Shown here: positions 11,308 to 46,615 of the stretch, in pieces
How positions within the stretch are numbered: the first letter of the stretch is position 1
Layout of the letters: the number at the start of each line of letters is the position of its first letter
Virus record (IMG/VR): IMGVR_UViG_3300029398_000003
DNA: 46,615 nt
Reading direction: 5' to 3' (one strand)
Source: a virus
Position numbers and translations under genes: made by a program
The notes under the pieces: generated by a model
Told to the model about the DNA's origin: nothing
The model's database searches: none
What the model saw: the letters and a program-made list of their open reading frames with translations, nothing else

Positions 11308-12456
11308 ATGAAAGACACCAGCATCAAGGGCAATGGAAAGTCCAGCATTATCAAAGCCCCTTCTGATATGCCCGAAACCTTTGAAGCATGGCGGGAACAG
11401 CTTCTCGCCGGAGAAGGCTACCTTGATGTGCGGTTGAATACCGATACAACCGGGGAAAACGCCGGGTGCAATGAAATCGGCACCGCTCTGAATAAAGCCA
11501 ATCTGCTGAATGATACCACGAAAGCGGCCTTGGAACTGACCCAGACAGACCCTACGGTAAATGACGCTCTGTATGCCCTAAGTCAGAAGGGTTCTCCCGC
11601 TGAGGTTCATGTGATCGCAGACAACGGAACCCAGGTCACAATGAGTAAGGGGAGTAAAGTCCTAACCGCTCAGGTGTCCAATGGTGAAGCGGTTCTCTAC
11701 CCTGCCGAGTTGGGCGATTGGAGTATTCAGTACATCTTTGGCGGCTCTCAGAAAACTCGGACTTGGACTCTGGAAGTCATTGGTATCGTCTATGTCTATC
11801 CCTTCGAGATCGGAGCTACCCTGAACGATACCGATTGGGAAGATATTGAGATTTGTGGTCGCCTGGGTATGGCGGAAAAATTCTTCAAGGTGGGAGATAC
11901 AAAGACTGTAAACATCGGCGGAACTAACTACGAGGTACAGATTATTGATTTCAACCATGACGATAAAGTATCTGGTGGTAAGGCCCCCATGACATTCCAG
12001 CTTGTGGACTGCCTCAATCAGACGGCACAGATGAATAGCAGTAACACCAATACCGGAGGCTGGAACGGTTCTGCCATGAGAACCAGAATGGCTACCTATA
12101 AAAGCCAACTTCCGGCGGCTCTTCGGAATGTCATCAAGACTGTCAAGAAGAAATCCGGCACCGGTGGCGGAAGTTCCAGCGGTACGCAGACCACCAATGA
12201 TGACCTGTTTCTGCTGTCCGAAATTGAGATTTTTGGCACGACCACTTACTCGGTAGCCGGTGAGGGTACACAGTACGCTTGGTACAAGGCCGGGAACACC
12301 AGAATTAAGAAAGTCAACGGTTCTGCGAACAACTGGTGGGAGCGTTCGCCTTTTAGCGGCAACGCCACCGATTTCTGCTATGTGAACAGTTCGGGGAACG
12401 CCAACTTTAACTTCGCCAACACCTCTTATGGCGTGTCCTTCGGCTTCTGCGTTTAA
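11308..12456 (+). CDS. DGR target protein 1, a putative receptor-binding tail fibre protein with C-terminal variable region VR1
   Basis: 382 aa, last gene of the tail module. The C-terminus NNWWERSPFSGNATDFCYVNSSGNANFNFANTSYGVSFGFCV is encoded by VR1, which matches the TR apart from adenine positions. Confidence 0.85.
   Translation: MKDTSIKGNGKSSIIKAPSDMPETFEAWREQLLAGEGYLDVRLNTDTTGENAGCNEIGTALNKANLLNDTTKAALELTQTDPTVNDALYALSQKGSPAEVHVIADNGTQVTMSKGSKVLTAQVSNGEAVLYPAELGDWSIQYIFGGSQKTRTWTLEVIGIVYVYPFEIGATLNDTDWEDIEICGRLGMAEKFFKVGDTKTVNIGGTNYEVQIIDFNHDDKVSGGKAPMTFQLVDCLNQTAQMNSSNTNTGGWNGSAMRTRMATYKSQLPAALRNVIKTVKKKSGTGGGSSSGTQTTNDDLFLLSEIEIFGTTTYSVAGEGTQYAWYKAGNTRIKKVNGSANNWWERSPFSGNATDFCYVNSSGNANFNFANTSYGVSFGFCV
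12320..12450 (+). repeat. DGR variable repeat VR1
   Basis: 131-bp ungapped alignment to TR 12975-13105 with 13 mismatches, all at TR adenines (for example AAT to TTT, AAC to TTC, ACC to GCC). Confidence 0.9.
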
Positions 12457-12474
12457 TCCAATATCTGCTAAATC

Positions 12475-12492
12475 CCGCCCCGTAAGGGGCGG
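12475..12492 (+). promoter_or_regulatory. GC-rich hairpin (7-bp stem, GTAA loop) 24 nt downstream of VR1. Candidate DGR target-recognition structure.
   Basis: ccgcccc gtaa ggggcgg with no following U-tract. Same sequence class and same spacing as the hairpin after VR2. Confidence 0.6.
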
Positions 12493-12507
12493 TATAGGAG
12501 GGTAATT

Positions 12508-12936
12508 ATGTCAGTCATCAAATCTAAACGGGGAGAAAGCCCAATGCAGTTCATCGAAACTGCAAGAAAACTGGAAGCTCACACTTTTTCCGTTGTCACC
12601 AAGGCTCCTAAGCGGTACGGCCCCTATCTCCTTTACAAGCTCATGGCTCTTGCCACCACGGTTCATGACGAGGTTCGGGCGGCAAACAATATCTATCCGA
12701 GAAACCAGCATGAAGCGCAAATGCGCCGGGACTGCCTGACAAGAGCCAATATTGCCCTCCAAAATCTCAGTCCAAAGCTGACCTTGCTCTATGACGCTAT
12801 TCTTCAAAACCCGGAAAAATGCCCGTGGATTGACCACGCCATGCAGGAGTTCGGAGAGTACATCAAAGAGGAAGCGAAGCTGATCGCAAAAGTGAAGAAA
12901 GCTGACAGCGAGAGGTATAAAGACCTCCCGGTGTAA
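12508..12936 (+). CDS. avd: DGR accessory variability determinant (Avd-like, basic helical protein)
   Basis: 142 aa between the target gene and the TR, the canonical mtd-avd-TR-RT order. Basic and helical, with a KAPKRYG segment resembling IPRKHG of BPP-1 Avd (recalled from memory). Confidence 0.6.
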   Translation: MSVIKSKRGESPMQFIETARKLEAHTFSVVTKAPKRYGPYLLYKLMALATTVHDEVRAANNIYPRNQHEAQMRRDCLTRANIALQNLSPKLTLLYDAILQNPEKCPWIDHAMQEFGEYIKEEAKLIAKVKKADSERYKDLPV

Positions 12937-12974
12937 GTTTTCAGATATGGGTCAAGTCCTGTCATCCGTTTATT

Positions 12975-13105
12975 GTTCTGCGAACAACTGGTGGGAGCGT
13001 TCGCCTAATAGCGGCAACACCAACAATTTCTGCAATGTGAACAGTTCGGGAAACGCCAACAATAACAACGCCAACAACTCTAATGGCGTGTCCTTCGGCT
13101 TCTGC
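12975..13105 (+). repeat. DGR template repeat (TR)
   Basis: Adenine-rich AAC/AAT-codon segment homologous to VR1 (131 bp) and VR2 (116 bp). Homology ends at ttctgc, after which the TR reads aacttcgta and both VRs read gtttaatcc. Confidence 0.9.
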
Positions 13106-13370
13106 AACTTCGTATGGGTCAGTCGTAGTAACCCCGTTGGGTGAAATCAGTACCCTTTGCAGAAGGAGGGCTTGTACCCTGCCGAAAGGCTAAAACTTCC
13201 GGGTATATCGTTTGAAATATACCCTTTCCGGCAACGGGAACTTCCGATGTAGTCAGCCGGACGCTGCTTGCATGGTGAGCGATTGTACGGTAGCTCATTT
13301 CATGGCTGGTACTACTATGCAGTTAGAACCCGTACCCCACAATAATACTGTACGGAGGGAACCCCTTTTT

Positions 13371-14588
13371 ATGACAAGTGAGGAACGAAGGGAAATCCGT
13401 TATCAACGCAGGAAAACAAAGAGGGACGAGGCCCGTCTAAAGCGAAGTATGGCCTGTGGAGATTTTGATGAAGTCTTTTCGTTCCGGCATCTATATCTCT
13501 CTGCGAAAAAGTGCTGTAAAGGAGTGTACTGGAAAAGTTCTACACAAAGATATATCAGCAATCTTATCCCAAATATCTCTGAAACCCTATTATCCCTGAG
13601 AAATGGCACCTTTATTCACCGAGGCTTCCATGAGTTCTACATCATGGAGCGTGGCAAGAAACGGCATATTCGCTCTGTTCATATCTCGGAGCGGACAGTC
13701 CAGAAATGCCTATGTGATTACTGCATTGTGCCAATCTACTCCGCCTCTTTCATCTACGACAACTCCGCCAGTTTGAAGCACCGAGGAATGGACTTTGCCT
13801 TACGGCGGATGGTCTATCACTTGGAACGGCATTTTCGCAAGCATGGTTTGGCTGGTGGCATCTTGATCTATGACTTCAAGAGCTTCTTCGATGACGCTCC
13901 CCATGAACCTCTGCTGGCGGAGGCGGAAAGACGGCTCCACGATGACCGTATTCGGGCTTTACACAACAGCTTCATTGCGGATTTTGGCCCGGTAGGGCTT
14001 GGCCTGGGCAGTCAGATCAGTCAGACAAATGCTCTGTTGCTGCCGAGTCCGCTTGACCATTATTTCAAAGAAGTCCTGGGGATTGAGGGATATGCCCGGT
14101 ATATGGATGACGGCTACGCCATTCATGAAGACCTGGATTATCTAAAGGGCGAATGTATGTTGGGATTGGAAGAGGTCACTCGGCACCTTGGACTCCGGCT
14201 CAACTGGAAGAAAACCAGGGTTGTTCCTCTGGTGGACTTCTACCGATGGTTGAAAACCAAGTTCATCGTCACACCGCAGGGGAAGGTGATCTTGAAGATG
14301 AACCCGGCTTCTACCAAAATCATCCGGCGCAAACTCCGTTCTTTTTACCGAAAATGGCAGATGGATGAAATGGCCCTGGCTGATATTCGCAATTCAGTGG
14401 ACAGCTATAACGGCCACATGATGCGAGGCAATAGTTATAAGGTAAAAGAGCGAACCAATCAGTATTTCAAATCCATGTTTGGTTTCTATCCGAACAAGAA
14501 AGGTTGGGAAAGAAATGTATCGAATGTTCAAAGGAGAAATTGTACTGGCAACAGTTACGAACCCTGTTTGGGTCAAAAAGCAGGATAA
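13371..14588 (+). CDS. DGR reverse transcriptase
   Basis: YMDD catalytic box (YARYMDDGYAI) and an LGLGSQISQ motif, the DGR-type (I/L)GxxxSQ. ATG at 13371 is preceded by ggaggga. The ORF track starts at TTG 13212, but that upstream part is more likely TR-RT spacer RNA. Confidence 0.85.
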   Translation: MTSEERREIRYQRRKTKRDEARLKRSMACGDFDEVFSFRHLYLSAKKCCKGVYWKSSTQRYISNLIPNISETLLSLRNGTFIHRGFHEFYIMERGKKRHIRSVHISERTVQKCLCDYCIVPIYSASFIYDNSASLKHRGMDFALRRMVYHLERHFRKHGLAGGILIYDFKSFFDDAPHEPLLAEAERRLHDDRIRALHNSFIADFGPVGLGLGSQISQTNALLLPSPLDHYFKEVLGIEGYARYMDDGYAIHEDLDYLKGECMLGLEEVTRHLGLRLNWKKTRVVPLVDFYRWLKTKFIVTPQGKVILKMNPASTKIIRRKLRSFYRKWQMDEMALADIRNSVDSYNGHMMRGNSYKVKERTNQYFKSMFGFYPNKKGWERNVSNVQRRNCTGNSYEPCLGQKAG

Positions 14589-15551: not shown

Positions 15552-15604
15552 CTAATTATTTTCAGTGGTCAATAGTGAGTTTAGTGAATGATTTTAAGTT
15601 TTTG

Positions 15605-15678
15605 CTATAAAGTCCCCTTAGAGAGCGTCCCTATAAGAGAGTTTATGGTAAAAATCGAAAATGGGTCACTAAACTCAC
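15605..15678 (+). promoter_or_regulatory. Conserved leader element, copy A, upstream of the holin gene. Homologous to 36814-36886.
   Basis: 29-bp perfect core aaaaatcgaaaatgggtcactaaactcac (15650-15678 equals 36858-36886), preceded by paired (t/a)(t/a)agagag boxes in both copies. Confidence 0.7.
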
Positions 15679-17232: not shown

Positions 17233-17270
17233 AGACACCCTCTACCGTTATGGTAAAGGGTGTCTTTTTG
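17233..17270. terminator. Hairpin agacaccct-N15-agggtgtct followed by tttttgttt. Convergent terminator; alternative reading is an attP-type dyad.
   Basis: 9-bp perfect inverted repeat with a T-tract. Overlaps the last codons of the integrase gene. Confidence 0.5.
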
Positions 17271-18903
17271 TTTGAACGAATATCTTTCCCCATACAATGT
17301 AAGGTTCGGATATGCGCTCAATGGTGGACTTTGACCCCTCAAATCCGAACCCCTTCTCGCTGGAAGGGTTTATGCGGAAAGTCTTATTCTTGCAGGAGGT
17401 CAAGTTATATGCTGTCGTAATGCGGAAACCGTCAGGTTCGTCCCATACGGTAACGGAGTTCACCATGAGGTCAATGATAATGCGCCGGTATCTCTCGTCT
17501 TCGATGCGGCCTCCCTTAAACTCGGTCAGCCAGTAGACAATCTGGCTCCGCTCAATTTTACAGACATATTTCTCTTCTTCGGCTAAAAGTCGGAGAAGAT
17601 TTTTCTTTTCTTTCTCCAACTCTACAAGTCGGTTCATAAGAGCGTCAGAGGCAATACCCTTTTCAATGGCATTTGTAATATTGGCAATACCGCTCTCTGT
17701 TTCCTTCATCCGTTCTGTAAGTTCAGGAATACGGGTATTTTCTCGCAAGTCCTGTTCAGTTTGAGAGATCGCCATGTCTGCCAGCTCTTGAATGGTATCA
17801 TCGGTCAGTAACTCCATAGCGTCTTGCGCTACGATATACTCTATCCATTCTTTCTTCAAGGGCTTCTTTTCACAAGCGTGTTTCCGCTTCCTGGTATAAC
17901 AGGTGTAGTAATTGTGGACAGCTCCGGTCTTGCTGGTGCCACTTTCCCCGTTCATAGAGCCTCCACAATGGCCGCAGAAGAGCTTTCCGGCCAAGAGGTA
18001 ATCCACCTTGGCTTTGCCCCTTGCCGGGGCTTCTGCGTTCTTAGAGAGCCTACGGCCCACCGTTTCAAACAGTTCCTTGTCAATGATGGCCGGAACGCCT
18101 CCTTCCATCTCAATATCTTTGTAGGTATAGACCCCGATATATCGTTTATTACGGAACATGGACTTGAAACTATTCCGGTTAAACTCTACTCCCTTGGCTG
18201 TGCGGTAGCCTTTTGCGTTAAACATACGGCAAATATCGGCCACGGTTTCCCCATTGGCATAAAGTTCAAAAGCCTCTTGGACGATATGAGCGGTAGCCGG
18301 ATTGATAACCAGTTTATGATCTTCAATTTTATAGCCGAGAGGAACATGACCTCCTATACTATGGCATTTCAAGGCAGACTCCCTCATACCTCTGGTGATC
18401 TTCTGCGAGAGGTCGGCAGAGTAAAATTCCGCCATACCCTCCAACACAGCTTCAAGAATAATACCCTCCGGTTTCTCAGAAATGTTCTCAGTAGCAGAGA
18501 TGACCTTTACGCCGTTCTTTCTGAGGCGGAATTTGAAAAGTGCGCTATCTGTTCGGTTCCGAGCAAAGCGGTCAAGTTTCCAAACAACCACATACTCCCA
18601 TGGCTTTTTCTCGCTGTCCCGTATCATCTCTTGGAAGTGAACCCGTTTCTCCACATCTTTCCGGGCGGTGGTGGCCCGGTCTACATAGATAGCGGTAATA
18701 CGGTAGCCATTAAGTTTGCAGAAGGTTCGGCAATCACGGAGCTGCCCTTCAATGGATTGTTCCCGTTGCCGCTCGGAGCTGAACCGAAGGTACAACGATA
18801 CATCGGTGTCCCCTTCAAAAAGTGTGGAGGGGTCTTGTCTGAACTGGTCTATTTCCTCTTCGGTCAACATGGAGAGGTCAATGGGGAATTTTGTGATTTT
18901 CAT
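17248..18903 (-). CDS. int: Large serine recombinase (phage integrase)
   Basis: Resolvase-type N-terminal domain (LRFSSERQ, DRFARN), recombinase domain and a Cys-rich zinc ribbon (CGHCGG...YYTCYTRKRKHAC), followed by a coiled-coil C-terminus. Start at 18903 (MKITKF) preferred because of ggaga 8 nt upstream; the ORF track start is 18918. Confidence 0.85.
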   Translation of the reverse strand: MKITKFPIDLSMLTEEEIDQFRQDPSTLFEGDTDVSLYLRFSSERQREQSIEGQLRDCRTFCKLNGYRITAIYVDRATTARKDVEKRVHFQEMIRDSEKKPWEYVVVWKLDRFARNRTDSALFKFRLRKNGVKVISATENISEKPEGIILEAVLEGMAEFYSADLSQKITRGMRESALKCHSIGGHVPLGYKIEDHKLVINPATAHIVQEAFELYANGETVADICRMFNAKGYRTAKGVEFNRNSFKSMFRNKRYIGVYTYKDIEMEGGVPAIIDKELFETVGRRLSKNAEAPARGKAKVDYLLAGKLFCGHCGGSMNGESGTSKTGAVHNYYTCYTRKRKHACEKKPLKKEWIEYIVAQDAMELLTDDTIQELADMAISQTEQDLRENTRIPELTERMKETESGIANITNAIEKGIASDALMNRLVELEKEKKNLLRLLAEEEKYVCKIERSQIVYWLTEFKGGRIEDERYRRIIIDLMVNSVTVWDEPDGFRITTAYNLTSCKNKTFRINPSSEKGFGFEGSKSTIERISEPYIVWGKIFVQTKRHPLP

Positions 18904-18936
18904 AGCGTCTTTCTCCATTCAGACAGGTCGATGACC

Positions 18937-20340: not shown

Positions 20341-21156
20341 ATGGATAAGAATGTATTTTCTCAGCTTGCGGCTGAGTTTGACCGCATGGAGCGGACGATC
20401 ACCTACCAAAAGGAAGTCATTTCCACCATGCAGAAGACCCCTACTTGCTCCTGTTGCAAGGTTCCCGCAGATGGCCGGATTTACACCCTTCCCGAACTCC
20501 CGAAGATGAAGCTGGACGATTGCTCTTGGGCTGAAATCGCTATGTATGCTCAGTCTGGCATGGCTGATAAGGTGTTTGCTCAGGGCGATACCAAAAAATT
20601 CACCCTGTCTAATGGCACAGTTATGTCGGCCCGTATCATCGACTTCAATCACGATACGGATAAAGAGAATAATATCCTGCCCATCACCTTTGAAACGGTA
20701 GAAACCCTCAATGATGACTTTCAGATGAACCCTGAGTACACCAACAAGGGCGGCTGGCAAAATTCTCAGCTTCGCAAGGTTCTGAACAATTCCGTCATCG
20801 AAATGCTTCCTGCTGATCTTCGGAAGGTCATCAAGCCCTGTTTGAAGAAGACGAGTTTGGGCGGAAATAGTGAGAAGTACGGCCTGACTTCTGACCCTCT
20901 GTTTGTTCTGTCCGAGCAGGAAATTTTTGGTCGAAAGATTTACTCCCATGGTGGCGAGGGGCATTGGTATGGCTGGTATCGCCAGGAGAATACCGAGTAC
21001 GGAAAGTGCAAGCAGAACGGTGAGCGGGATTGGCGGTGGGAGCGTTCGCCTCTTAGCGGCGGCACCAACAATTTCTGCAATGTGGACGGTTCGGGCAGCG
21101 CCTACAGTAACTCCGCCAACTACTCTTATGGCGTGTCCTTCGGCTTCTGCGTTTAA
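20341..21156 (+). CDS. DGR target protein 2, a paralogue of the target-1 C-terminal half, carrying VR2
   Basis: 271 aa. Shares IIDFNHD, GGW.(G/N)S, LP..LR.VIK, LSE.EIFG and WERSP...GVSFGFCV with target 1. No signal peptide seen. Located in the early operon. Confidence 0.8.
   Translation: MDKNVFSQLAAEFDRMERTITYQKEVISTMQKTPTCSCCKVPADGRIYTLPELPKMKLDDCSWAEIAMYAQSGMADKVFAQGDTKKFTLSNGTVMSARIIDFNHDTDKENNILPITFETVETLNDDFQMNPEYTNKGGWQNSQLRKVLNNSVIEMLPADLRKVIKPCLKKTSLGGNSEKYGLTSDPLFVLSEQEIFGRKIYSHGGEGHWYGWYRQENTEYGKCKQNGERDWRWERSPLSGGTNNFCNVDGSGSAYSNSANYSYGVSFGFCV
21035..21150 (+). repeat. DGR variable repeat VR2 (remote)
   Basis: 116-bp ungapped alignment to TR 12990-13105 with 14 mismatches, all at TR adenines. 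The 3' flank gtttaatcc is identical to that of VR1. Confidence 0.9.
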
Positions 21157-35660: not shown

Positions 35661-36122
35661 ATGAGTCATTTCATTCCGGTTCCCTTGGAATTAAAAGAGG
35701 CAAATGCTTTTGTAGATCAATTTCATCGTCACCACAATTCAGTGTACCGTGATAAATTCCGAATTGGTGCTATGAGAAATGGAAAATTAGTTGGAGTTGT
35801 TCAGGTTGGAAGACCTGTGTCACGGAACTTGGATGATGGTAAAACCGTAGAGGTTACACGCTTATGCACAGATGGTACACACAATGCTTGTTCTTTTCTC
35901 TATGCGAAAGCCGCTAAAATCGCTCAGGAAATGGGGTATTCAAAGATTATTACCTACATTTTGCAATCAGAAAGTGGCATTTCACTCAAATCGGCAGGAT
36001 GGCATTGTGAAAATTCTTGTTGTGGAGGCGGGAGTTGGAATAGACCGGGAAGAAAACGCACCACTACGGCACCGACAGACAAAAAGCAAAGATGGTGTAA
36101 GATTTTGAAGGGGAGCGTATGA
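35661..36122 (+). CDS. GNAT-fold XF1762-family protein, related to the phage Mu Mom adenine-modification enzyme
   Basis: ANAFVDQFHRHH ... LVGVVQVGRPVSR ... VEVTRLCTDGTHNACSFLYAKA ... SLKSAGW matches the family as I recall it. Function is inferred. Confidence 0.45.
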   Translation: MSHFIPVPLELKEANAFVDQFHRHHNSVYRDKFRIGAMRNGKLVGVVQVGRPVSRNLDDGKTVEVTRLCTDGTHNACSFLYAKAAKIAQEMGYSKIITYILQSESGISLKSAGWHCENSCCGGGSWNRPGRKRTTTAPTDKKQRWCKILKGSV

Positions 36123-36123
36123 C

Positions 36124-36300
36124 ATGAACAAGAAAAATATGCGCCGTATGTCCATCTTGGTCACAGCACAGACCGCTAAAAATCTGGAACGACTGGCGGC
36201 TATGTCCGGCTACTTTGAGATTGGGAGAGTAGTAGATAAGTTGACCAGAGAGAAAATGATTTCTCTCCGGTGCGAGAAAGGAGATGGCCGTAATGAGTAA
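36124..36300 (+). CDS. Small ribbon-helix-helix-like protein (58 aa), absent from the ORF track
   Basis: My own translation: MNKKNMRRMSILVTAQTAKNLERLAAMSGYFEIGRVVDKLTREKMISLRCEKGDGRNE. Confidence 0.35.
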   Translation: MNKKNMRRMSILVTAQTAKNLERLAAMSGYFEIGRVVDKLTREKMISLRCEKGDGRNE

Positions 36301-36813: not shown

Positions 36814-36886
36814 GTATAAACCCTCCATAGAGAGTGATATATAGAGAGATTTATAGCAAAAATCGAAAATGGGTCACTAAACTCAC
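36814..36886 (+). promoter_or_regulatory. Conserved leader element, copy B, upstream of terS. Homologous to 15605-15678.
   Basis: Same 29-bp core (36858-36886), with atagagag twice 14 nt apart upstream. Followed by TCACTAA ac TCACTAA ... TTAGTGA next to the terS RBS. Confidence 0.7.
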
Positions 36887-36917
36887 TAAAGGCTAACTGA
36901 AAATAATTAGTGAAGGA

Positions 36918-37499
36918 GTGCTGAATATGAGTGAAGAATTGACTCCGAAGAGAGGGCGTGGCCGTCCGAAGGGGACTGGTGGAAACAAGCGGCCTGATCG
37001 AACTACGGCAATGAGTGTGCAGACTGAACCGGGTGACAACCGTAAATATCTGCAACATACTATGCGAATGTGGAATTGGCCGGAAGTGGATATGAGGGAG
37101 CCTGAACAGGTTGCAGAGCGGATTGAACAGTATTTCGGTATTTGTATTGAGGATGATATGAAGCCGAGTGTTGCTGGCCTCGCTTGTGCTTTTGGAGTGG
37201 ATAGAACAACCCTCTGGAAGTGGCTTAACAATGTCGATAGTGCCTATATTCCCGCCCAAAGCCGCCACCTTATAAAAAAGGCGTATCAAAATTTGAACGC
37301 TCAAATGGAAAACTATATGCAGAACGGGAAGATCAATCCCGTGGCCGGTATCTTCCTGATGAAGAACAATATGGGCTATCAGGACAAGCAGGAAGTGGTT
37401 TTGACCCCGAACAACCAGCTTGGCGAGGTGACTCCCCCGGAAGAGCTTCAACAGAAGTATTTGGAAGCTACTGCCAGCGACTATAATACGGACGAGTGA
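36918..37499 (+). CDS. terS: Terminase small subunit
   Basis: Basic N-terminus (PKRGRGRPKG), an HTH-like PSVAGLACAFGVDRTTLWKWL, and GIFLMKNNMGYQD typical of Terminase_2-type small subunits. Confidence 0.7.
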   Translation: MLNMSEELTPKRGRGRPKGTGGNKRPDRTTAMSVQTEPGDNRKYLQHTMRMWNWPEVDMREPEQVAERIEQYFGICIEDDMKPSVAGLACAFGVDRTTLWKWLNNVDSAYIPAQSRHLIKKAYQNLNAQMENYMQNGKINPVAGIFLMKNNMGYQDKQEVVLTPNNQLGEVTPPEELQQKYLEATASDYNTDE

Positions 37500-37508
37500 C
37501 CTGGTTCA

Positions 37509-37580
37509 CGACTATGGCTCACAACTTTGCGACTATCCCGCTCGAAGGTCTGCGACTATCCAGGCCACCTCTGCGACTAT
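37509..37580 (+). repeat. Four direct CGACTAT repeats (consensus TYTGCGACTATCC) phased at 21, 23 and 21 bp, directly after the terS stop
   Basis: Copies at 37509, 37530, 37553 and 37574. Confidence 0.85.
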
Positions 37581-37585
37581 GTGGA

Positions 37586-37626
37586 AGCCGCCGACCTCTC
37601 TTCCTGGGAAATCGGCGGCTCTTTTG
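37586..37626 (+). terminator. Rho-independent terminator after terS
   Basis: agccgccga-N17-tcggcggct followed by cttttg. Confidence 0.65.
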
Positions 37627-37747
37627 CGTCCTGGCCTCTGGCTCCTGGCTGATCTGGTGCAGCCGGGGCTGGTTGTCTGGAAAAGTGTACTTTTCTTTAC
37701 TCTTTTATAATGTATAGAAAACACTGAAAATATTTTGTATTTTCCTA

Positions 37748-37776
37748 TTGACAACTGAATTTATTCAGTGTATATT
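37748..37776 (+). promoter_or_regulatory. Island promoter 1 (TTGACA-17-TATATT) with the perfect palindrome ACTGAAT-TT-ATTCAGT in the spacer
   Basis: ttgaca actgaatttattcagtg tatatt, with extended -35 context ctattgacaac. Confidence 0.7.
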
Positions 37777-37831
37777 AAAGGCACAAAAGATATTCAGTGC
37801 TTAACGGACATTTTAGAAAGGGGTTCACGAT

Positions 37832-38182
37832 ATGAAAATTTATGATTTACCAGTTATGCAAGGCCGGGAAAAATCCTTTTACGGGAAAGCCCGTATCATT
37901 GAAAAGGATAACGGGGAAAAGGTGCTGCAATCGTATAAAACGGAAGTTTGTAAAATTACTTCCGGCGGGTTGTTCGTCCGGTTGTGGGACGGGTACAGTG
38001 TAACCACCATGCGACATATCAATAGTTTTCTTTCCTTTTTCGGGATTGACGGCGGCGGGAAAGCCTGGTGGAACGGGTTACCGGTGGAGCGGCCCCATAG
38101 AATGGGTGAAAATCCGGTTTATATCTATGACGCAGCTGGAAAGATCATAGGTCACAAGATAGGAAACGGAAAGGCGGTGTAA
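37832..38182 (+). CDS. Hypothetical protein (island cassette 1)
   Basis: 116-aa ORF with RBS aaagggg. Confidence 0.55.
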   Translation: MKIYDLPVMQGREKSFYGKARIIEKDNGEKVLQSYKTEVCKITSGGLFVRLWDGYSVTTMRHINSFLSFFGIDGGGKAWWNGLPVERPHRMGENPVYIYDAAGKIIGHKIGNGKAV

Positions 38183-38184
38183 TT

Positions 38185-38370
38185 ATGGCGTATATTAGAA
38201 AAACCGTTGACCGGTGGGACATTGAAACGAATTGGGGTTACGGGTGGGAAATTGAAGATTGCGAATACACCAGGGCCGCAGCGGTGCAACGATTGAAAGA
38301 ATACCGGGAAAATTCTTGTGGACGGTTTGCGGTTCGACTGAAAAAGCATAGGGAAAGAAAGGCGGTTTAA
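38185..38370 (+). CDS. Hypothetical small protein (island cassette 1)
   Basis: 61-aa ORF, 2-nt spacing from its neighbours. Confidence 0.45.
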   Translation: MAYIRKTVDRWDIETNWGYGWEIEDCEYTRAAAVQRLKEYRENSCGRFAVRLKKHRERKAV

Positions 38371-38372
38371 TT

Positions 38373-38909
38373 ATGTTTATTGGATATTCTGAAAATCAAA
38401 AGTTATTCTTGCGGCCTTATGATTTTAACCGTTGCCGGATCATGCAAGCATTGGCCGAAGTGGTGGAAAACAACGGCGGAAAGGTGAAGCCGGGTAAAAG
38501 TGTTTTCGTGGTGGATAGGGCTTTAGAAAATGTGGAGCCGGTCAAAGTGTTTTACACAAGTTATATTACATTCATTTTTGACGGGATAGCTTATTATTTC
38601 CAAACAGAAGATAATCCCTTTTTCCCGGCCCGGTATATTAAAACGCCGGTTCGTAATGGGAAATATTCAAAAGACGCTTGTTTAGAGGAATTGGAAACGG
38701 TTTGGCTTTATGATTGCGTTTTCTCTTCTAATGTCCCGGAAAGCGATATTAAAGAGATTGCGAACATTCTTTTTAACGGCCTTGTAAAGTCCCCCAAAAC
38801 GGAAATTATACGGGATTGGAGCTATTGCGTTGTTCCAAATACCTATGACGGGGGAAGCCATAAAGAAAAAGTTTTGAAGCCAGAAAGAATGGCCGTTATT
38901 GATTGGTAA
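38373..38909 (+). CDS. Hypothetical protein (island cassette 1)
   Basis: 178-aa ORF. Confidence 0.55.
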   Translation: MFIGYSENQKLFLRPYDFNRCRIMQALAEVVENNGGKVKPGKSVFVVDRALENVEPVKVFYTSYITFIFDGIAYYFQTEDNPFFPARYIKTPVRNGKYSKDACLEELETVWLYDCVFSSNVPESDIKEIANILFNGLVKSPKTEIIRDWSYCVVPNTYDGGSHKEKVLKPERMAVIDW

Positions 38910-38922
38910 AGGGGTGTAAAAC

Positions 38923-39213
38923 ATGGATTATAACACTATCGCAGCCGATAACCTGAATAGCATTATGCGGGAAATTGCGGAATATACCAGAATGGCTGAA
39001 GAGATCACTATTGTATTGGACGGCCTAAAAGATACCTTGAAAAAGTACATGGACGAAAACGGGCTTGACCATATCGCCGGGGCCGAACATAAAGCAAGTT
39101 ATAAACCGGTCACAAGTTGCCGTCTTGATACTACCGCTTTGAAGAAGGATTTACCAGAAGTTGCGGCCCGATATACCAAAAGCACTACAAGCCGCCGTTT
39201 TCTTTTCGTGTAA
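38923..39213 (+). CDS. Hypothetical protein, coiled-coil N-terminus (island cassette 1)
   Basis: 96-aa ORF. Confidence 0.5.
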   Translation: MDYNTIAADNLNSIMREIAEYTRMAEEITIVLDGLKDTLKKYMDENGLDHIAGAEHKASYKPVTSCRLDTTALKKDLPEVAARYTKSTTSRRFLFV

Positions 39214-39226
39214 GGCGGTGGGCGAT

Positions 39227-39463
39227 ATGACAAAAACACAAGAACGCAAGTTAAAAACCGCCTTAAAGCGGTTAGAGAAATGCGGTGGAGATTGCCACCA
39301 TTGCGAAAATTGCCGGGTTTATACCCGGTCAACGGAACGGGTTTTATATATGGCGGTTGGTTGTGATCTACTACCGGTGGAAATGTTTTCTTGTATTGCA
39401 GATACTCCAAAAAGTTTACACGCAGCCGCTTTAGAAACAGTTCATTTTGAATTAGAGGTGTAA
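39227..39463 (+). CDS. Hypothetical Cys-rich small protein (CGGDCHHCENC)
   Basis: ATG 39227 within track ORF 39161-39463. Confidence 0.45.
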   Translation: MTKTQERKLKTALKRLEKCGGDCHHCENCRVYTRSTERVLYMAVGCDLLPVEMFSCIADTPKSLHAAALETVHFELEV

Positions 39464-39465
39464 TT

Positions 39466-40168
39466 ATGATCTACTGTAAACAGATACCGCCGGAATACCA
39501 GGAAAGCCGGTTGTTTGACGATGAAGGAATGGGGCCGGATTATATCAATGTAACCGGCAACCGGAATTATATCAGCCGTACAAGCTCACTTTTTGACCGG
39601 GTATATAATGCCCTGGAAAATGAAGAATTAGCCGAAGCCCTGGACGATATAAAGAACGGCGGTTATTATAGCAGCTTTTACAAGAACGCAACAGACGCTA
39701 TAAATGACCTTTTAGAGCCTGAAAAGGCCCGGTATAATACCCGTGATATTCACGCCCTGAAAGAGTTTGTAGAAGCCTATACGGAAGCCGGAAGCCGGGA
39801 AAAGAATGATATTTTGTGTAAGGTTCTTTCCATTGTTACGGGCCGGGGTTGGGATTGGCAAATTATCCGGGGTTGTTGTCAAAGTGATTGGAACGAGATT
39901 TTTTTACCCCGTGGACGATTGGAGCCGTGAAGCGTTGGCCGCTTTTGAAACAATGTATTTTAACACTGGTTCAGAGTGGATTATACATGATGAAGAGAAT
40001 ACCCCGGAAGGGCCGGAAGATATAAGCGGGTATAGCTGCTATATAGTAGCCGATACAGAAGAGGGCATTAGAAAAGAGCTTGCAGCCGTGGCCGGTTGTG
40101 CGCCGTCTGATCTGGTTATATGGGCATTTGATGAATTTATCAGAGTAGCACAATATAAGGCGGTGTAA
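39466..40168 (+). CDS. Hypothetical protein, reading frame broken at a T7 tract (39899-39905)
   Basis: ORFs 39466-39930 and 39806-40168 fuse to ...CCQSDWNEIFYPVDDWSREAL... if one T is removed. Confidence 0.5.
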
Positions 40169-40247
40169 ATGTGTATATAGTTTTGCTGATCTTGCTTTTA
40201 CCAGTTCAAATAATTCTTGAATTGATGAAGTTTAATAAATGAGTTTG

Positions 40248-40286
40248 CCGCCCTGGTTCATTCCGGGGCGGTTCTTTTATGCTTTT
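40248..40286 (+). terminator. Rho-independent terminator ending island cassette 1
   Basis: ccgccctgg ttcatt ccggggcgg followed by ttcttttatgcttttt. Confidence 0.6.
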
Positions 40287-40455
40287 TCAGGGTGCAGCCG
40301 GGGCCGGTTGCCTATACCGGGGCCGGGGGATATATCCACCGCCACCGGGCCGGGGTGAGTGGCGAAAATTCCCACAAAAATAAAAAGGCTTTATTCCTAA
40401 CAAACTTCATTCAGTTACAAATCTTATTCAGTAACAAAATATTTTCAACTCTCTA

Positions 40456-40484
40456 TTGACAACAAAATAAATTCAGTGTATAGT
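40456..40484 (+). promoter_or_regulatory. Island promoter 2 (TTGACA-17-TATAGT)
   Basis: ttgaca acaaaataaattcagtg tatagt. Same ctattgacaac and ttcagtgtata context as promoter 1. Two ttcagt(t/a)acaaa direct repeats lie upstream (40409-40438). Confidence 0.7.
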
Positions 40485-40504
40485 GTCATCAAGAGGTGAT
40501 TACC

Positions 40505-40795
40505 ATGTATATCAACAAGGCTATCCGAGATTTGATGAAAGCGAAAAATGTTTCTCTTCTGACCATGGCAAAGGCTCTTGGTAAAGAGCGTGGCAATGAA
40601 ATCAGCTCTCGGCTGAGAAGCACTAACCTGTCCTTCAACAGCGCAGTCGAAATGCTGTCCGCCCTGGGTTATGAGGTGGTCATTCAGGAGAGAAAGCCCG
40701 GAGTCCGCAGAGCTGACCAAATCCTGATTGACCAGAAGGAAGACCCGAAGTATGACCTGGACGCTCTATTGGGGTCAGGTGGTGATGGCAAGTGA
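40505..40795 (+). CDS. XRE-type HTH regulator (island cassette 2)
   Basis: MYINKAIRDLMKAKNVSLLTMAKALGKERGNEISSRL. RBS agaggtga. Confidence 0.55.
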   Translation: MYINKAIRDLMKAKNVSLLTMAKALGKERGNEISSRLRSTNLSFNSAVEMLSALGYEVVIQERKPGVRRADQILIDQKEDPKYDLDALLGSGGDGK

Positions 40796-41415
40796 AATAT
40801 GGCTATGGTCGGGTATCAGCCAAAGACCAAAACCTTGCTCGTCAGCTTGCCGCCTTGAAAGCCTATGCTCCTGATCTGGATGATGACCATATCTTCACCG
40901 ATAAACAAAGCGGAAAGAATTTCAACCGGGAGCATTACTTAAAGCTAAAATCAATCTTGGTTCCCGGTGATGAAATTTTGGTTGAGGAATTAGACCGGTT
41001 TGGACGGAATAAAGTGGAAATAAAAGCCGAGTTGGAGTGGTTCAAGGAGCATGGTGTTATTGTCAGGGTGTTTGATGTTCCTACTACACTGATGGACTTC
41101 CATGGACAGGATTGGATTGGCGAGATGGTCAATAATATTCTGATTGAAGTCATGGGAGCAATGGCGGAGCAAGAGCGGAAGAAGATACGGAAGCGTCAGG
41201 CCGAAGGGATAGCCGCTATGCCAGTGGTTGGAGGGAGAAAGGTATCTGCTAAAACAGGAAGAGGGTTTGGCCGTCCTGCTTATGAGATTGACCTTGATAA
41301 ATTTAAGGCCCTGGTGCAAAAGCAGAAAGAAGGGCTGGTTACGGTGAATGACGCTTGCCGTCAACTTGGTATCAGCAGACCTACATGGTATGAGAAAGTG
41401 CGAAAGGTGGTGTGA
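40792..41415 (+). CDS. Small serine recombinase (resolvase/invertase family)
   Basis: GYGRVSAKDQ catalytic-Ser motif, DRFGRN, and a C-terminal HTH (ACRQLGISRPTWYEKV). GTG start overlapping the upstream stop. Confidence 0.85.
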   Translation: MKYGYGRVSAKDQNLARQLAALKAYAPDLDDDHIFTDKQSGKNFNREHYLKLKSILVPGDEILVEELDRFGRNKVEIKAELEWFKEHGVIVRVFDVPTTLMDFHGQDWIGEMVNNILIEVMGAMAEQERKKIRKRQAEGIAAMPVVGGRKVSAKTGRGFGRPAYEIDLDKFKALVQKQKEGLVTVNDACRQLGISRPTWYEKVRKVV

Positions 41416-41419
41416 ACTT

Positions 41420-42010
41420 ATGGGACAGTACGACAATTACAGTAATGAGAAAAATATCGCCAAAGCACAAAAGAGGCTGGATAAACTATCGGTAAAATGC
41501 AACTCTGATTTGTACGAAGTGGAGTTGGCCCGAAAGGAATTGGAAACTGCAAGGCTGTTTGAACGGTGTCAAATCTTTGGGACAGAGGGTTGGAGAAAGA
41601 GTATTTATAATCCTAATGCTAATATCATGTTCAGTGATGATAACGAGGTTATGATGTTCTTTGATAAGTTAATCCCCTATCGAGATATAAGCTCCTACGC
41701 CATTATTGAAAACATCGTCAAGGAAGCACATACTAAGACCAAGAAGACCGGGGCAATAACAAGGGCTATTGTGGGTGGGGCGATTGCCGGAGGGGTTGGA
41801 GTCGTGACCGGGGCGATTACTGCGGGGTCAAAGTCCAGCACCATCGTACATGAAATACCGGACGGGTTCTTTCTGCAAATCTTTATGAAAGACGGTTCCG
41901 GGTATCAGTGTCCGGTTCCGAGCAACGGAACAATCTCCAATAAAGTTCCGAAGATGTGGCTCCACTTGGCGAGTAAATTACAGGCCATCGTGGAGAGGAA
42001 TAAAGAATAA
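41420..42010 (+). CDS. Membrane protein with a central glycine-zipper segment
   Basis: AIVGGAIAGGVGVVTGAITAG lies between a coiled-coil N-terminal region and a C-terminal globular region. Confidence 0.5.
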   Translation: MGQYDNYSNEKNIAKAQKRLDKLSVKCNSDLYEVELARKELETARLFERCQIFGTEGWRKSIYNPNANIMFSDDNEVMMFFDKLIPYRDISSYAIIENIVKEAHTKTKKTGAITRAIVGGAIAGGVGVVTGAITAGSKSSTIVHEIPDGFFLQIFMKDGSGYQCPVPSNGTISNKVPKMWLHLASKLQAIVERNKE

Positions 42011-42032
42011 ATAGGCTCACGCAAAGGCGGGA

Positions 42033-42082
42033 GTAACAGCCATTACGGGCTATCGGAGAAATCCGGTAGCCCTTTTTCTTTT
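42033..42082 (+). terminator. Terminator-like element T1, homologous to 45781-45844
   Basis: gtaacagccattac gggctatcgg agaaat ccggtagccc tttttctttt. Confidence 0.6.
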
Positions 42083-42094
42083 CAGGAGGTCATT

Positions 42095-42451
42095 ATGAAA
42101 ATTGATGTACTGGGTACGAAATATAATCTGCGCCGGGTCAATTATAACCAGGACGAGTTCATGCGGAAGATGAACTATGGCGGCTACTGTGATAACAACA
42201 CCAAAGAGATCGTTATTCTCAATCTCAGAAGCACCCCGGATTGGGCTGAGGCTCAGGAAGAAGTCATTCAGCGTATGGAGAAATGTACTATCAGACATGA
42301 GTTGGTTCACGCTTTCCTCAATGAGTCCGGGTTACAGTGGAATAGCTTTGCCCCGGATAAAGCGTGGGCCAAAAACGAGGAAATGGTTGACTGGTTTGCC
42401 ATCCAGTTTCCGAAGATGTATGAAGCGTTCCGGCTTGCCGGAGGGATTTGA
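42095..42451 (+). CDS. HExxH-motif protein (putative zinc metallopeptidase-like)
   Basis: 118 aa with IRHELVHAF. Immediately upstream of terL. Confidence 0.35.
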   Translation: MKIDVLGTKYNLRRVNYNQDEFMRKMNYGGYCDNNTKEIVILNLRSTPDWAEAQEEVIQRMEKCTIRHELVHAFLNESGLQWNSFAPDKAWAKNEEMVDWFAIQFPKMYEAFRLAGGI

Positions 42452-42460
42452 GGTGATTTT

Positions 42461-44116
42461 ATGGATTATCGGAAACTGGCAGACAGTATTAAGCGGCATA
42501 TTGGGAATAAGCCAGAAGATCATGTCGCCTATATTGACCTGTTATCCCTTTGCCGCCAGTGGGAAGCGGAAGATTTTCAAGCGGCGCACGAGGTCAGTAA
42601 AGAGTTACGGGTTTTCTCGGCCAAGCAGTTACGCCGTACTTCTCCAAAAGAGGCAGAACATTTTTATGAGGCATGGAGGAAGAGCCTCTTGTTTGATGCT
42701 CCCCATAATTTTGACGCTTTTATGACTTATATTGAGCTTGACCGGAAGCCGGAAAAGCGGTTCTATGCTCCCCGGAGGCATTACCTGAAACCCATGGTGC
42801 AGGGGTTCCAAGATATTCTTGATAAAAAGCTGCGTCTTTTAACAATATCCATGCCGAAACGAGCGGGAAAGTCGCAAACAGGTATCAATTTTGTTAATAT
42901 GCTCTCTGGCAAATTCCCTGACCGCTCTACACTGATGGAGGGAACCGGAGATGACCTTGTGAAGAGCTTCTATAACGGGTGCTTAGAATATCTGATGGCT
43001 CCGAATGAGTATCTATTCTATGATGTATTCCCGGATGCCCGTCTGGTGCAGACCGGAGCGGACACAAAGATCATCAACCTCAAATCCAAGTCCCGGTTCC
43101 CTACTATCATGTGCCGTTCCATTGATGCCCGTCAGGTAGGTTTGTCCGAGGCTACGAATGTGCTTTATCTGGATGACTGTGTGGAGGGCCGTGAAGAGGC
43201 GAAGAACCGCCAGCGGCTTGATGATAAATGGGAAGTGATTTCTGGCGATATTATGGGCCGAGCCATTGAGGGTACGCCCATGGTATTCACTGGCACCCGA
43301 TACTCCATCTACGACCCTATTGGGCGTGTCCAGGAATATGCGGCACAGGAGAATTGGCCCTGGAGAGCCATTGAAATTCCGGCCCTTGATCTAATCACGG
43401 ACGAGAGTAATTATGAGTATGAGCGAGAGGGTCAGAAGATTTTTACCACGGCATATTTCCGGGAGCAGAGGGAACTTCTATCCGCCGAGCAGTTTGAGAG
43501 TGAGTTCCAGCAACAGCCTTTTGAGGCCAAGGGTCTTCTGTTCAATAAGGATGAATTGAATTATTTCTTTGAGCTGCCTCCTGACCGGGAGCCGGACACC
43601 ATCATTGCCGTAGGCGATACCGCCGAGAGTGGTTCGGACTCCACCTCTCTCCCGGTGGCCGTTATCTACGGCACCGAGGTTTATATTGTCGATGTGGTCT
43701 TTGATGACGCTCCCGCAGAGGTAACAAAACCGGAGTGTGCCAAATGCCTGATCTCCAACAAGGTCGCTTCTGCTACTTTTGAGGCCAACAATGCAGGTCA
43801 ATATTATGCCCGTGATGTGGCAGAAATCATTCGGCAGCAAGGGTACTCCATTGGTATCAGAACGAAGCGGACGATTTCAAATAAGCAGACTCGAATTGAA
43901 TTTGCCTCCGACAATATCAAGAAGAACTTCTATTTTAAGCACCCGTCCACTTACAAACGAGGCAGTCAGTATTGGAATTTCATGAAGGAGTTGACCACCT
44001 ATACCCGAAGCGGCAAGGTTCCGCATGATGACGCACCTGACTCCCTGGCTCTTCTGGAAAACGAAATTCGTATGCTGGCCGGAGGGAAAATCGAAATCTT
44101 CAAGCGGCCATGTTGA
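42461..44116 (+). CDS. terL: Terminase large subunit
   Basis: 551 aa with Walker A-like MPKRAGKS, LYLDD (Walker B-like) and a C-terminal nuclease region. Followed by the portal gene. Confidence 0.85.
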   Translation: MDYRKLADSIKRHIGNKPEDHVAYIDLLSLCRQWEAEDFQAAHEVSKELRVFSAKQLRRTSPKEAEHFYEAWRKSLLFDAPHNFDAFMTYIELDRKPEKRFYAPRRHYLKPMVQGFQDILDKKLRLLTISMPKRAGKSQTGINFVNMLSGKFPDRSTLMEGTGDDLVKSFYNGCLEYLMAPNEYLFYDVFPDARLVQTGADTKIINLKSKSRFPTIMCRSIDARQVGLSEATNVLYLDDCVEGREEAKNRQRLDDKWEVISGDIMGRAIEGTPMVFTGTRYSIYDPIGRVQEYAAQENWPWRAIEIPALDLITDESNYEYEREGQKIFTTAYFREQRELLSAEQFESEFQQQPFEAKGLLFNKDELNYFFELPPDREPDTIIAVGDTAESGSDSTSLPVAVIYGTEVYIVDVVFDDAPAEVTKPECAKCLISNKVASATFEANNAGQYYARDVAEIIRQQGYSIGIRTKRTISNKQTRIEFASDNIKKNFYFKHPSTYKRGSQYWNFMKELTTYTRSGKVPHDDAPDSLALLENEIRMLAGGKIEIFKRPC

Positions 44117-44154
44117 AAAACTAAATATCCAATGGTATTATAAAGAGTTATTCA

Positions 44155-44183
44155 TTGACAAGCATTGGATATTATGCTATCAT
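44155..44183 (+). promoter_or_regulatory. Sigma-70-type promoter between terL and portal (TTGACA-17-TATCAT)
   Basis: ttgaca agcattggatattatgc tatcat. An 11-bp inverted repeat (aatatccaatg at 44124-44134, cattggatatt at 44163-44173) brackets the -35. Confidence 0.5.
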
Positions 44184-45780: not shown

Positions 45781-45844
45781 GTAACAGCCACTACGGGCTA
45801 TCGGTAAGAGCGGAAACGCTTTTGCCGGTAGCTCTTTTTCTTTT
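45781..45844 (+). terminator. Terminator-like element T2, homologous to 42033-42082
   Basis: gtaacagccactac gggctatcgg ...agcggaaacgct... ccggtagctc tttttctttt. Confidence 0.5.
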
Positions 45845-45967: not shown

Positions 45968-46564
45968 ATGGCAAAGATTGACACCAGCAAGATTGAGGGG
46001 TATGCGAACATGACCCCTGAGCAAAAGCTGGCCGCTCTGGAAGGGTTTGAGTACGAGGACAACTCCGCAGAGCTGGAAAAGCAGAAGAACGCTCTTTCCA
46101 AGGCCAATTCTGAGGCCGCTGAGTGGAAGCGGAAGCACAATGCTCTTTTGTCCGAAGAGGAAAAGAAGAAGCAGGAAGACGCTGACAAGCTGGCTCAGAT
46201 GGAACAGGAGCTTGCCGATCTCCGTAAGGGCAAGACCGTTTCCGAGTACAAAGCCAAGTTTGTAGCCCAGGGCTATGACGAGGCTCTAGCTGAGGAAACC
46301 GCTAAGGCCCTGGCTGACGGCGATAGTGCTAAGGTCTTTGCCAACCAGAGCAAATTCCTCGAAGAGTATGCGAAGAAGGTCAAAGCTGACGCAATCAAAA
46401 AGACCCCCAAGCCCGGTGCGGGTGCCGGTTCCGGCTCTGGCACCGAGGATGCCGTAGATTACGGCAAGAAGATCGAAGCGGCGCAAAAGAACGGTGATAT
46501 TACCGCTGTCGCCTACTATACACGCCTGAAAGCCCAGGCCGAGGCCGAGGCTAAGGGTGAATAA
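45968..46564 (+). CDS. Scaffolding protein (phage GP20-like)
   Basis: 198 aa, highly charged coiled coil (EKQKNALSKANSEAAEWKRK...). Directly upstream of the capsid gene across the junction. Confidence 0.7.
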   Translation: MAKIDTSKIEGYANMTPEQKLAALEGFEYEDNSAELEKQKNALSKANSEAAEWKRKHNALLSEEEKKKQEDADKLAQMEQELADLRKGKTVSEYKAKFVAQGYDEALAEETAKALADGDSAKVFANQSKFLEEYAKKVKADAIKKTPKPGAGAGSGSGTEDAVDYGKKIEAAQKNGDITAVAYYTRLKAQAEAEAKGE

Positions 46565-46615
46565 CCAGTAAAGGAGAGATTGATTTATGGCCGATACTCT
46601 GGCTACCAGTTTCGG
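46517..46615. repeat. Second copy of the 99-bp terminal overlap (identical to 1-99)
   Basis: Identical sequence. The ATG at 46587 duplicates the capsid start at 71. Confidence 0.95.

Follow-up and report, generated by a model that had tools for sequence, protein, structure and literature searches.

Morons, a concept credited to Juhala and Hendrix for phages HK97 and HK022, are reportedly stretches of extra DNA that lie between genes adjacent in related phages and carry their own promoter and terminator. In Pseudomonas phage JBD26, the moron tab (tab/atab) is located between the genes for the small and large terminases, terS and terL, and has its own promoter (PMC10884400). Here, we describe a stretch with a similar outline, positions 37,500 to 42,094 of a viral DNA of 46,615 nucleotides (nt) (IMG/VR record IMGVR_UViG_3300029398_000003; its whole length is referred to as the window), which likewise separates terS from terL. 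As with morons such as tab, the stretch places accessory genes between late genes under their own promoter, has an atypical composition, and is patchily represented in relatives. In contrast to morons, the gap between terS and terL never closes (0 of 62 relatives), measures 3 to 5 kilobases (kb), and holds two operons with a shared operator along with an invariant core that is not cargo. We consider it probable that the stretch is a lineage-wide module of temperate gut Oscillospiraceae siphophages, with an ancestral gap, a constant core, exchangeable cargo, and co-regulated moron-like operons.

Relatives were collected in two ways. A scan of IMG/VR seeded with TerS gave 80 loci, 62 of which contain both terS and terL and are the set used for most counts below. 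A second search of IMG/VR, made with a conserved noncoding 79-nt element from the gap alone, gave 75 stretches, and the element was re-located in 74 loci. A curated phage database yielded matches to only two relatives, both partial and unannotated. terS and terL were separated by 2902 to 4967 nt (median, 3985) in 62 of 62 loci and were adjacent in none, and the gap was present even in clades whose TerL and TerS proteins are 41% and 31% identical to those of the window. Because the gap persists in relatives with only 41% TerL identity, the terS-terL split is ancestral. All 62 gaps contained a forward-strand serine recombinase gene and exactly one copy of the 79-nt element. The loci from the element-only search that reach far enough all share one gene order, over a range of TerS identity from 31% to 99%. 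Measured from the element in the 74 IMG/VR loci, terS lies 2.2 to 4.3 kb upstream, terL 1.3 to 3.7 kb downstream, and the recombinase gene 130 to 750 nt downstream, with one case at +1396. The most distant clade has minus-strand genes throughout the interval from terS to the element. Prophage relatives with the same terS-terL arrangement were found in Oscillospiraceae genomes, namely, those of Dysosmobacter segnis BX15 (cultured), Faecousia, a Ruminococcus sp., and Intestinimonas. As read from these comparisons, the stretch is a fixed architecture of a gut Oscillospiraceae prophage family and not a recent insertion.

The original prediction had proposed that a 4.6-kb accessory island, gained as a moron or mobile cassette and possibly built by duplication of a promoter module, splits terS from terL. 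Parts of this proposal hold: the stretch is 4.6 kb long, its cargo is accessory, atypical in composition, and mosaic, and its units have the promoter-genes-terminator form. Its G+C content is 44.8%, compared to 48.6% for the genome, which is a modest difference (3rd percentile among windows of the same size), and its tetranucleotide distance falls at the 96th percentile. What does not hold is the splitting of a once-contiguous pair, given that comparison with related genomes showed terS and terL to be contiguous in none of 62, or an acquisition at this point in a phage whose relatives all have the gap. Genes that are neighbors in relatives were found only on either side of the HExxH gene and of individual genes in the first cassette, and not on either side of the region as a whole; the predicted promoters and terminators and the differing composition are features that the region does share with morons.

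Mosaicism is confined to the cargo, namely, the small cassette 1 genes, the gene that follows the recombinase, and the HExxH gene. Cassette 1 genes occur in differing combinations even between phages whose terS and terL genes are >95% identical, the segment that contains the HExxH gene (42087-42446) is precisely missing from L006, L013, L021, L023, and L028, and some relatives have an extra gene between the helix-turn-helix (HTH) and recombinase genes. The exchange breakpoints map to ~37800-37825 (just after promoter P1), 40152-40396, 42009-42097, and 42086/42447. These are conserved noncoding linkers, and the breakpoints coincide neither with the 23-base-pair (bp) box nor with the promoter repeat described below. 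Since the breakpoints lie in conserved linkers, homologous exchange fits better than a mobile cassette. Recent acquisition could formally account for the form of the units, the low G+C content and atypical tetranucleotide usage, the cargo differences between nearly identical relatives, and the promoter and box repeats, which are real. However, the architecture is kept at 41% TerL and 31% TerS identity without a single case of adjacency, the breakpoints lie off the repeats, and paired promoters with matching operators recur throughout the sublineages that carry the HTH gene. Recent acquisition is thus largely refuted by the comparison, and we consider it very improbable.

Within the gap, the predicted layout was confirmed: two promoter-genes-terminator cassettes lie between the terminase genes, with the promoters and hairpins where they had been placed. 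The features that bound the gap and the control elements within it are as follows.

36918..37499, plus strand: terS, small terminase of the P22 gp3 family (PF16677 GP3_package, 5.4e-13; phrog_606, 2.7e-11)
37478..37580, plus strand: five CGACTAT iterons straddling the terS stop codon (starts 37478, 37509, 37530, 37553, and 37574), a candidate pac site
37586..37627, plus strand: T0, intrinsic-terminator-like hairpin after terS (hairpin 37586-37620; -24.6 kcal/mol, z -3.0), followed by UCUUUUG
37648..37678, plus strand: post-terminator box, copy 1, GCTGATCTGG followed by the 23-bp box at 37656-37678
37721..37800, plus strand: predicted promoter P1 (-35 at 37748-37753, -10 at 37771-37776) with operator copies at 37721-37738 (minus strand), 37753-37770, and 37783-37800
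40247..40286, plus strand: Tc1, terminator ending cassette 1 (hairpin 40247-40272; 10-bp GC-rich stem, -22.0 kcal/mol, z -4.3), with a U-tract
40291..40313, plus strand: 23-bp box, copy 2, detected only in the closest relatives
40407..40484, plus strand: predicted promoter P2 (40456-40484) with an operator at 40462-40479 and ATTCAGT half-sites at 40409 and 40426
40505..40795, plus strand: Xre/Cro-like HTH gene, 96 amino acids, the presumed regulator of P1 and P2; positional homologues match HTH_37, HTH_26, and HTH_3
42047..42082, plus strand: T1, terminator-like hairpin (hairpin 42047-42072; GGGCTATCGG..CCGGTAGCCC and then UUUUUCUUUU; -21.4 kcal/mol, z -5.9)
42461..44116, plus strand: terL, large terminase (phrog_38, 6.3e-44)

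The two promoters, P1 at 37748-37776 (TTGACA-17-TATATT) and P2 at 40456-40484 (TTGACA-17-TATAGT), each agree with the sigma-70 consensus at 11 of 12 positions, the top score between 36000 and 46615, where only three such sites exist in all. The claimed duplication of a promoter module is visible as a 30-nt repeat at 37745 and 40453 (87% identical), and the 23-bp box reported ahead of each promoter is present at 37656 and 40291 (91% identical). Comparable post-terminator boxes were seen in both intergenic regions of L047 and L050. A promoter with at least 10 of 12 matches follows the 79-nt element within 200 nt in 62 of 62 loci, compared to 5.8% of random 200-nt windows, and one follows terS within 500 nt in 49 of 62 loci, compared to 13.5% in random sequence.

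The spacer of P1 holds the palindrome ACTGAAT-TT-ATTCAGT. The 18-mer ACAAAATAAATTCAGTGT has three genome-wide matches at up to 3 mismatches, all of them at P1 or P2, where 0.05 would be expected. In relatives, the words common to the P1 and P2 regions are different ones (TCAAG-N6-CTTGA types, GACAATAAAAC.CTTGATATG, and TTACATTTACC), and each word goes with a particular class of the small HTH gene that lies downstream of P2. A single HTH class, by comparison, can include different recombinase types. All of these HTH proteins belong to a single Xre/Cro-like family, whose profile matches HipB and 2o38. Because the shared operator word tracks the HTH allele, these patterns suggest that one HTH regulator controls both P1 and P2, either repressing or tuning them, through presumed binding to the operators.

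If this is so, the layout recalls acr-aca loci, in which variable small ORFan genes (lacking recognizable relatives) stand behind a strong promoter with an inverted-repeat operator and are accompanied by a small HTH protein. Cassette 1 could then be a counter-defence locus of this type, expressed early from its strong promoter, encoding small inhibitors, and shut off by an Aca-like HTH protein through the inverted repeats of the promoter. Its six small ORFan genes turn over rapidly by presence and absence at a fixed genomic position, the promoter is of consensus strength with a palindromic operator in its spacer, the HTH allele co-varies with the operator, and a DUF8033 gene like the one at the head of cassette 1 is likewise the first of several small genes next to an integrase gene in an unrelated element. 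In contrast with acr-aca loci, however, the HTH gene here belongs to the second operon, with the recombinase gene, and does not stand at the end of cassette 1. In addition, scans of Pfam, PHROGs, NCBIfam, and PADLOC, which are general libraries, gave no match to Acr or Aca families and nothing significant in PADLOC, there were no structural matches, and morons expressed in the lysogen fit the same features equally well. We therefore regard a counter-defence locus of the acr-aca type as doubtful.

Hairpins T0, Tc1, and T1 are strong, and each has a U-tract, in agreement with the three terminators originally listed. The sequence of the T1 stem is shared by 30 loci. T1 also has a second, extended copy at 45795-45834, after the portal gene (stem base GGGCTATCGG...CCGGTAGC, tail UUUUUCUUUU), that is kept in 13 relatives. 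The ribosome-binding site of the gene after T1 begins 3 nt past the T1 U-tract. It had been argued that late transcription either crosses three terminators or that terL has another promoter. No sigma-70-like promoter was found between T1 and terL, so terL transcripts must cross T1. Conservation of the T1 stem and its recurrence after the portal gene suggest that read-through of T1 is regulated rather than accidental leakage. Separately, the terL-portal intergenic gap (44113-44183) contains two strong sigma-70-like promoters with an extended -10 (TG), matching at 10 of 12 and 11 of 12 positions.

No recognizable sigma-70 promoter was found for terS. A 66-nt sequence directly upstream of the terS ribosome-binding site (36826-36890) is repeated upstream of the gene that starts at 15702; there, it makes up the right-hand side of a highly stable hairpin at 15575-15678 (-41 kcal/mol, z -8.4). 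The same sequence is inverted upstream of terS in relative L073. The repeat is possibly a late promoter, a regulatory site, or a small mobile repeat.

Iteron arrays like those at the end of terS are found at the same position in nearly all relatives. Where TerS is 31% or 55 to 60% identical, the iterons switch to GCGACTTT (10 copies) or to CGCAGAARG (4 to 7 copies), respectively. As the iteron sequence co-varies with the type of TerS, the iterons look like a TerS-cognate site and probably mark pac, the site of TerS recognition, at the 3' end of terS; in that case, the accessory module would start right at pac. Cohesive (cos) ends were considered and rejected, as contig termini are inconsistent between relatives.

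Three parts of the module are constant: the gene for the recombinase, the 79-nt element, and, right after the element, a strong sigma-70 promoter. The first two are as follows.

40313..40391, plus strand: 79-nt G-tract/A-tract element (..GGGGCCGGGGGATAT-N18-GGGCCGGGGTGAG..AAAATTCCCACAAAAATAAAAAG), always between terS and the serine recombinase gene
40792..41415, plus strand: small serine recombinase of the resolvase/invertase family, 207 amino acids (PF00239, 2e-25; phrog_125, 1.7e-41)

PF00239 spans residues 3 to 142 of the recombinase, and HTH_17 and HTH_8 match residues 182 to 205. A YGRVSAKDQ motif keeps the catalytic serine, and the nearest solved structure is that of Sin resolvase (2r0q, 4.9e-20). 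These sequence features place the protein securely within the resolvase/invertase family. Among the relatives, this position is occupied by at least five divergent types of recombinase, all with the R-V-S catalytic motif: three are resolvase-like (195 to 207 amino acids), and two (255 to 271 amino acids) resemble the N-terminal half of large serine integrases. No inverted-repeat site pair or orientation variants were seen among the repeats of the window or in relatives, and DNA inversion by the recombinase was rejected because no relative showed an orientation variant.

The element combines four G-tracts with a GATAT core and an A-tract. Its 71 unique variants align without gaps, and it lies 1.5 to 2.8 kb from the end of terS. 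Several identities were tried for it and rejected. As a structured RNA, it gave no RNAalifold consensus on either strand (71 variants), no covariation, and no Rfam match (gathering threshold or E <= 1). As a small open reading frame (ORF; TGA and TAA alternate in one frame), it has invariant third codon positions, and the implied peptide is not invariant. It is not attP, because it is intact inside prophages, nor is it a TerS site, as it does not change with TerS type in the way that the iterons do. Candidate motifs for a DnaA box or a sporulation-sigma promoter, checked by eye, were not conserved over the variants. A recombinase-specific site was not supported either, since one element can accompany different recombinases: the elements of L042 and L047 are nearly alike, and those of L012 and L015 agree in their central sequence, yet the two members of each pair differ in recombinase.

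Two described systems resemble this core. In the Tn3-family res-resolvase systems and in Sin and beta, the likeness is that of a small serine recombinase with a conserved noncoding element of ~80 nt and a promoter immediately upstream; by this analogy, an autoregulatory layout of the recombinase unit is plausible. Unlike the sites of those systems, the element here lacks obvious dyad-symmetric subsites and is unchanged over at least five recombinase types, most lineages have the HTH gene between the promoter and the recombinase gene, and the core sits in the packaging region of a phage rather than in a transposon or plasmid.

The second system is cre-lox of phage P1, in which lox lies close to pac and Cre can circularize first-headful DNA. 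P1 exists as a plasmid in its prophage state, and Cre belongs to the tyrosine recombinases. A literature search for support on P1 lox and pac returned nothing usable. The likeness lies in a recombinase gene with a nearby conserved site a few kilobases from the packaging site that could fall within the terminal redundancy; the differences are that the recombinase here is of the serine type and that the phage integrates by means of a separate large serine integrase. By this analogy, the recombinase would act on a single-copy adjacent site, either the element or the promoter region, to circularize injected DNA or to resolve multimers, and the cargo would merely ride along. Recombinase and element are invariant and always lie shortly downstream of terS and its TerS-specific iterons. 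Because the site is 1.5 to 2.8 kb from the end of terS and the pac-like iterons, rightward packaging would place it inside the terminal redundancy of the first headful. Moreover, the recombinase of the window is closest to Sin and Tn3 resolvases, the gene is driven by a strong constitutive-type promoter, and the RVS motif is kept in all five types. The res sites of Sin and Tn3 resolvases lie immediately upstream of the resolvase gene. However, the element does not co-vary with the recombinase type and has direct G-tract repeats without the dyad symmetry of a crossover site, the account depends on packaging direction and redundancy size, and a phage that already has a large serine integrase would normally be served well enough by RecA-type cyclization. 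As no recombinase-specific site was found, we regard a Cre-lox-like function as unlikely.

The recombinase could instead act on the 23-bp box and the 30-nt promoter module, direct repeats found on both sides of cassette 1, excising or capturing cargo in an integron-like or resolvase-mediated exchange. The recombinase gene adjoins these repeats, and the comparable post-terminator boxes of L047 and L050 would fit. Against this, the cassette boundaries expected of an integron or mobile cassette are missing, since the breakpoints do not match the repeats; no deletion product without cassette 1 and the element was present among the 62 and 74 loci; the repeats track the HTH class and not the recombinase type; and no inverted or circular-junction variants were seen. 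We consider this kind of exchange very improbable.

The genes carried by the two cassettes and the gene between T1 and terL are as follows.

37832..38182, plus strand: cassette 1 gene 1, DUF8033 (PF26096) protein, 116 amino acids (phrog_4264, 3.9e-18); homologues carry PF26096/DUF8033
38185-38370, plus strand: cassette 1 gene 2, ORF of 61 amino acids, no family match
38373-38909, plus strand: cassette 1 gene 3, ORF of 178 amino acids, no family match
38923-39213, plus strand: cassette 1 gene 4, 96 amino acids, matching phrog_6244 and a RecE C-terminal-like profile
39227-39463, plus strand: cassette 1 gene 5, ORF of 78 amino acids, no family match
39466..40168, plus strand: cassette 1 gene 6, ~235 amino acids in relatives and frameshifted here by an extra T in the run at 39899-39905
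40171..40242, plus strand: hydrophobic micro-ORF of 23 codons, V/M-YIVLLILLLPVQIILELMKFNK, translationally coupled to gene 6 and ending 4 nt before Tc1
41420..42010, plus strand: cassette 2 cargo, PF27000 protein of 196 amino acids with a Gly-rich low-confidence insert; homologues from Flavonifractor and Dysosmobacter carry PF27000
42095..42451, plus strand: HExxH gene, 118 amino acids, a presence/absence cassette (phrog_1233, 4.9e-20)

Cassette 1 had been described as six ORFs. Its extent as a unit from promoter to terminator was upheld, but the last two, overlapping ORFs are one gene of ~235 amino acids, and a 23-codon micro-ORF also closes the cassette. The run at 39899-39905 is T7 in the window and T6 in L003, L006, L023, and L025, in which both halves share one frame; the extra T reflects an assembly error, or else the frameshift is real or the run phase variable. 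The presence of genes 2 to 5 varies between relatives. The peptide of the micro-ORF (MYIVLLILLLPVQIILELMKFNK family) is conserved over lineages that differ in the genes upstream of it and is possibly a small membrane peptide or a toxin-like peptide. The three ORFs assigned to cassette 2 were recovered as an Xre-like HTH protein, a Sin/resolvase-like serine recombinase, and the PF27000 protein, and the HExxH gene expected between T1 and terL was located by its HELVH motif in 42095-42451. In relatives, the genes after the recombinase encode membrane proteins or lipoproteins, which resemble prophage exclusion genes by analogy only.

A DUF8033 gene was also found in an unrelated, integrase-bearing element (L164, positions 6001-7976; ENA k141_197064), at the head of small unannotated genes (237, 79, 88, 62, and 47 amino acids). 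DUF8033 may mark a recurrent type of small-gene cassette.

Brought together, the proposed module would run from terS with its pac-like iterons through a terminator, cargo operon 1, the micro-ORF and a terminator, the 79-nt element, and a promoter to an optional Xre-type HTH gene, the serine recombinase, a second cargo, T1, an optional HExxH gene, and terL. Cargo would be swapped between related phages by homologous recombination in the conserved noncoding linkers. The product of the HTH gene that opens cassette 2 would control its own promoter, P2, and act in trans on P1, such that the two terminator-bounded operons act as co-regulated morons transcribed apart from the late genes. Late transcription or antitermination would read through T0, Tc1, and T1 to reach terL. 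The cargo would confer a benefit on the lysogen or during infection, for example, defence, exclusion, or counter-defence. Of this account, the comparisons show the anatomy, the gene order, the mosaicism, and the co-variation of operator with HTH allele and of iteron with TerS type, and we infer operator binding by the HTH protein, the expression timing, the pac role of the iterons, and the benefit of the cargo.

Several observations weigh against this account. The promoters, terminators, and operators are sequence predictions. The HTH protein of the window itself has only weak family matches (phrog_8522, 0.003; PADLOC PDC-M64B, 3.9e-5). In 19 of 62 loci, the HTH gene is absent and P1 and P2 are little alike, which means that not all relatives have the two-operon circuit. 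When all cassette proteins were scanned against Pfam, PHROGs, NCBIfam, and PADLOC, the cargo gave either matches at the DUF level or none, and PDB sequence searches with the proteins of 116, 235, and 196 amino acids found no match. AlphaFold2 models of the 196-amino-acid protein (predicted local distance difference test [pLDDT] score, 76.5) and of the DUF8033 protein (pLDDT, 78.7) had no Foldseek match in the PDB below E = 0.2. Finally, the 79-nt element co-varies with none of the recombinase, HTH, and TerS types, and the account does not explain why the recombinase and the element are invariable. We regard the region as a permanent regulated cargo bay with an invariant recombinase-plus-element core.

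One could suppose that the element and its replaceable serine recombinase form a previously undescribed cis/trans DNA-processing system tied to packaging, such as a serine counterpart of lox-Cre, or that the element is a new site for the control of packaging or late genes, with the cargo operons exploiting a protected position. We think this improbable; if the recombinase and element do serve circularization or packaging, the mechanism would be new.

As a cargo bay, the locus is a reproducible hotspot of accessory genes in widespread temperate phages of human-gut Oscillospiraceae (Dysosmobacter, Faecousia, Flavonifractor, and Ruminococcus-like hosts). Its clear boundaries and testable promoter/operator logic make it a good place to look for new genes for lysogen benefit, exclusion, and counter-defence. 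Moreover, since adjacency of terS and terL is not universal, annotation pipelines that assume it miss terS here.

The phage is a temperate gut siphophage. The window begins and ends with an exact 99-nt duplication (bases 1-99 are identical to 46517-46615), and the genome is thus circularly closed at ~46.5 kb. Its genes include those for a large serine integrase (17248-18918, minus strand), a CI-type repressor, a D5-type primase-helicase, a Mom-like protein, an SPP1-type portal, and terminase. The Mom-like DNA-modification protein (35661-36122; phrog_1384, 5e-37) is encoded shortly upstream of terS, and next to it, also upstream of terS, is a gene for a protein of 58 amino acids (36124-36300) that is kept in most relatives and has a ribbon-helix-helix-like fold as judged by eye.

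The window also contains a diversity-generating retroelement (12320-14588 and 21020-21150). Its template repeat lies at 12975-13105, an Rfam RT-2 RNA lies at 13114-13378 (152.9 bits), and the reverse transcriptase gene is at 13212-14588. VR1 (12320-12450) differs from the template repeat at 13 positions, all of which are A in the template, and in the remote VR2 (21020-21150), 17 of 25 mismatches are at A.

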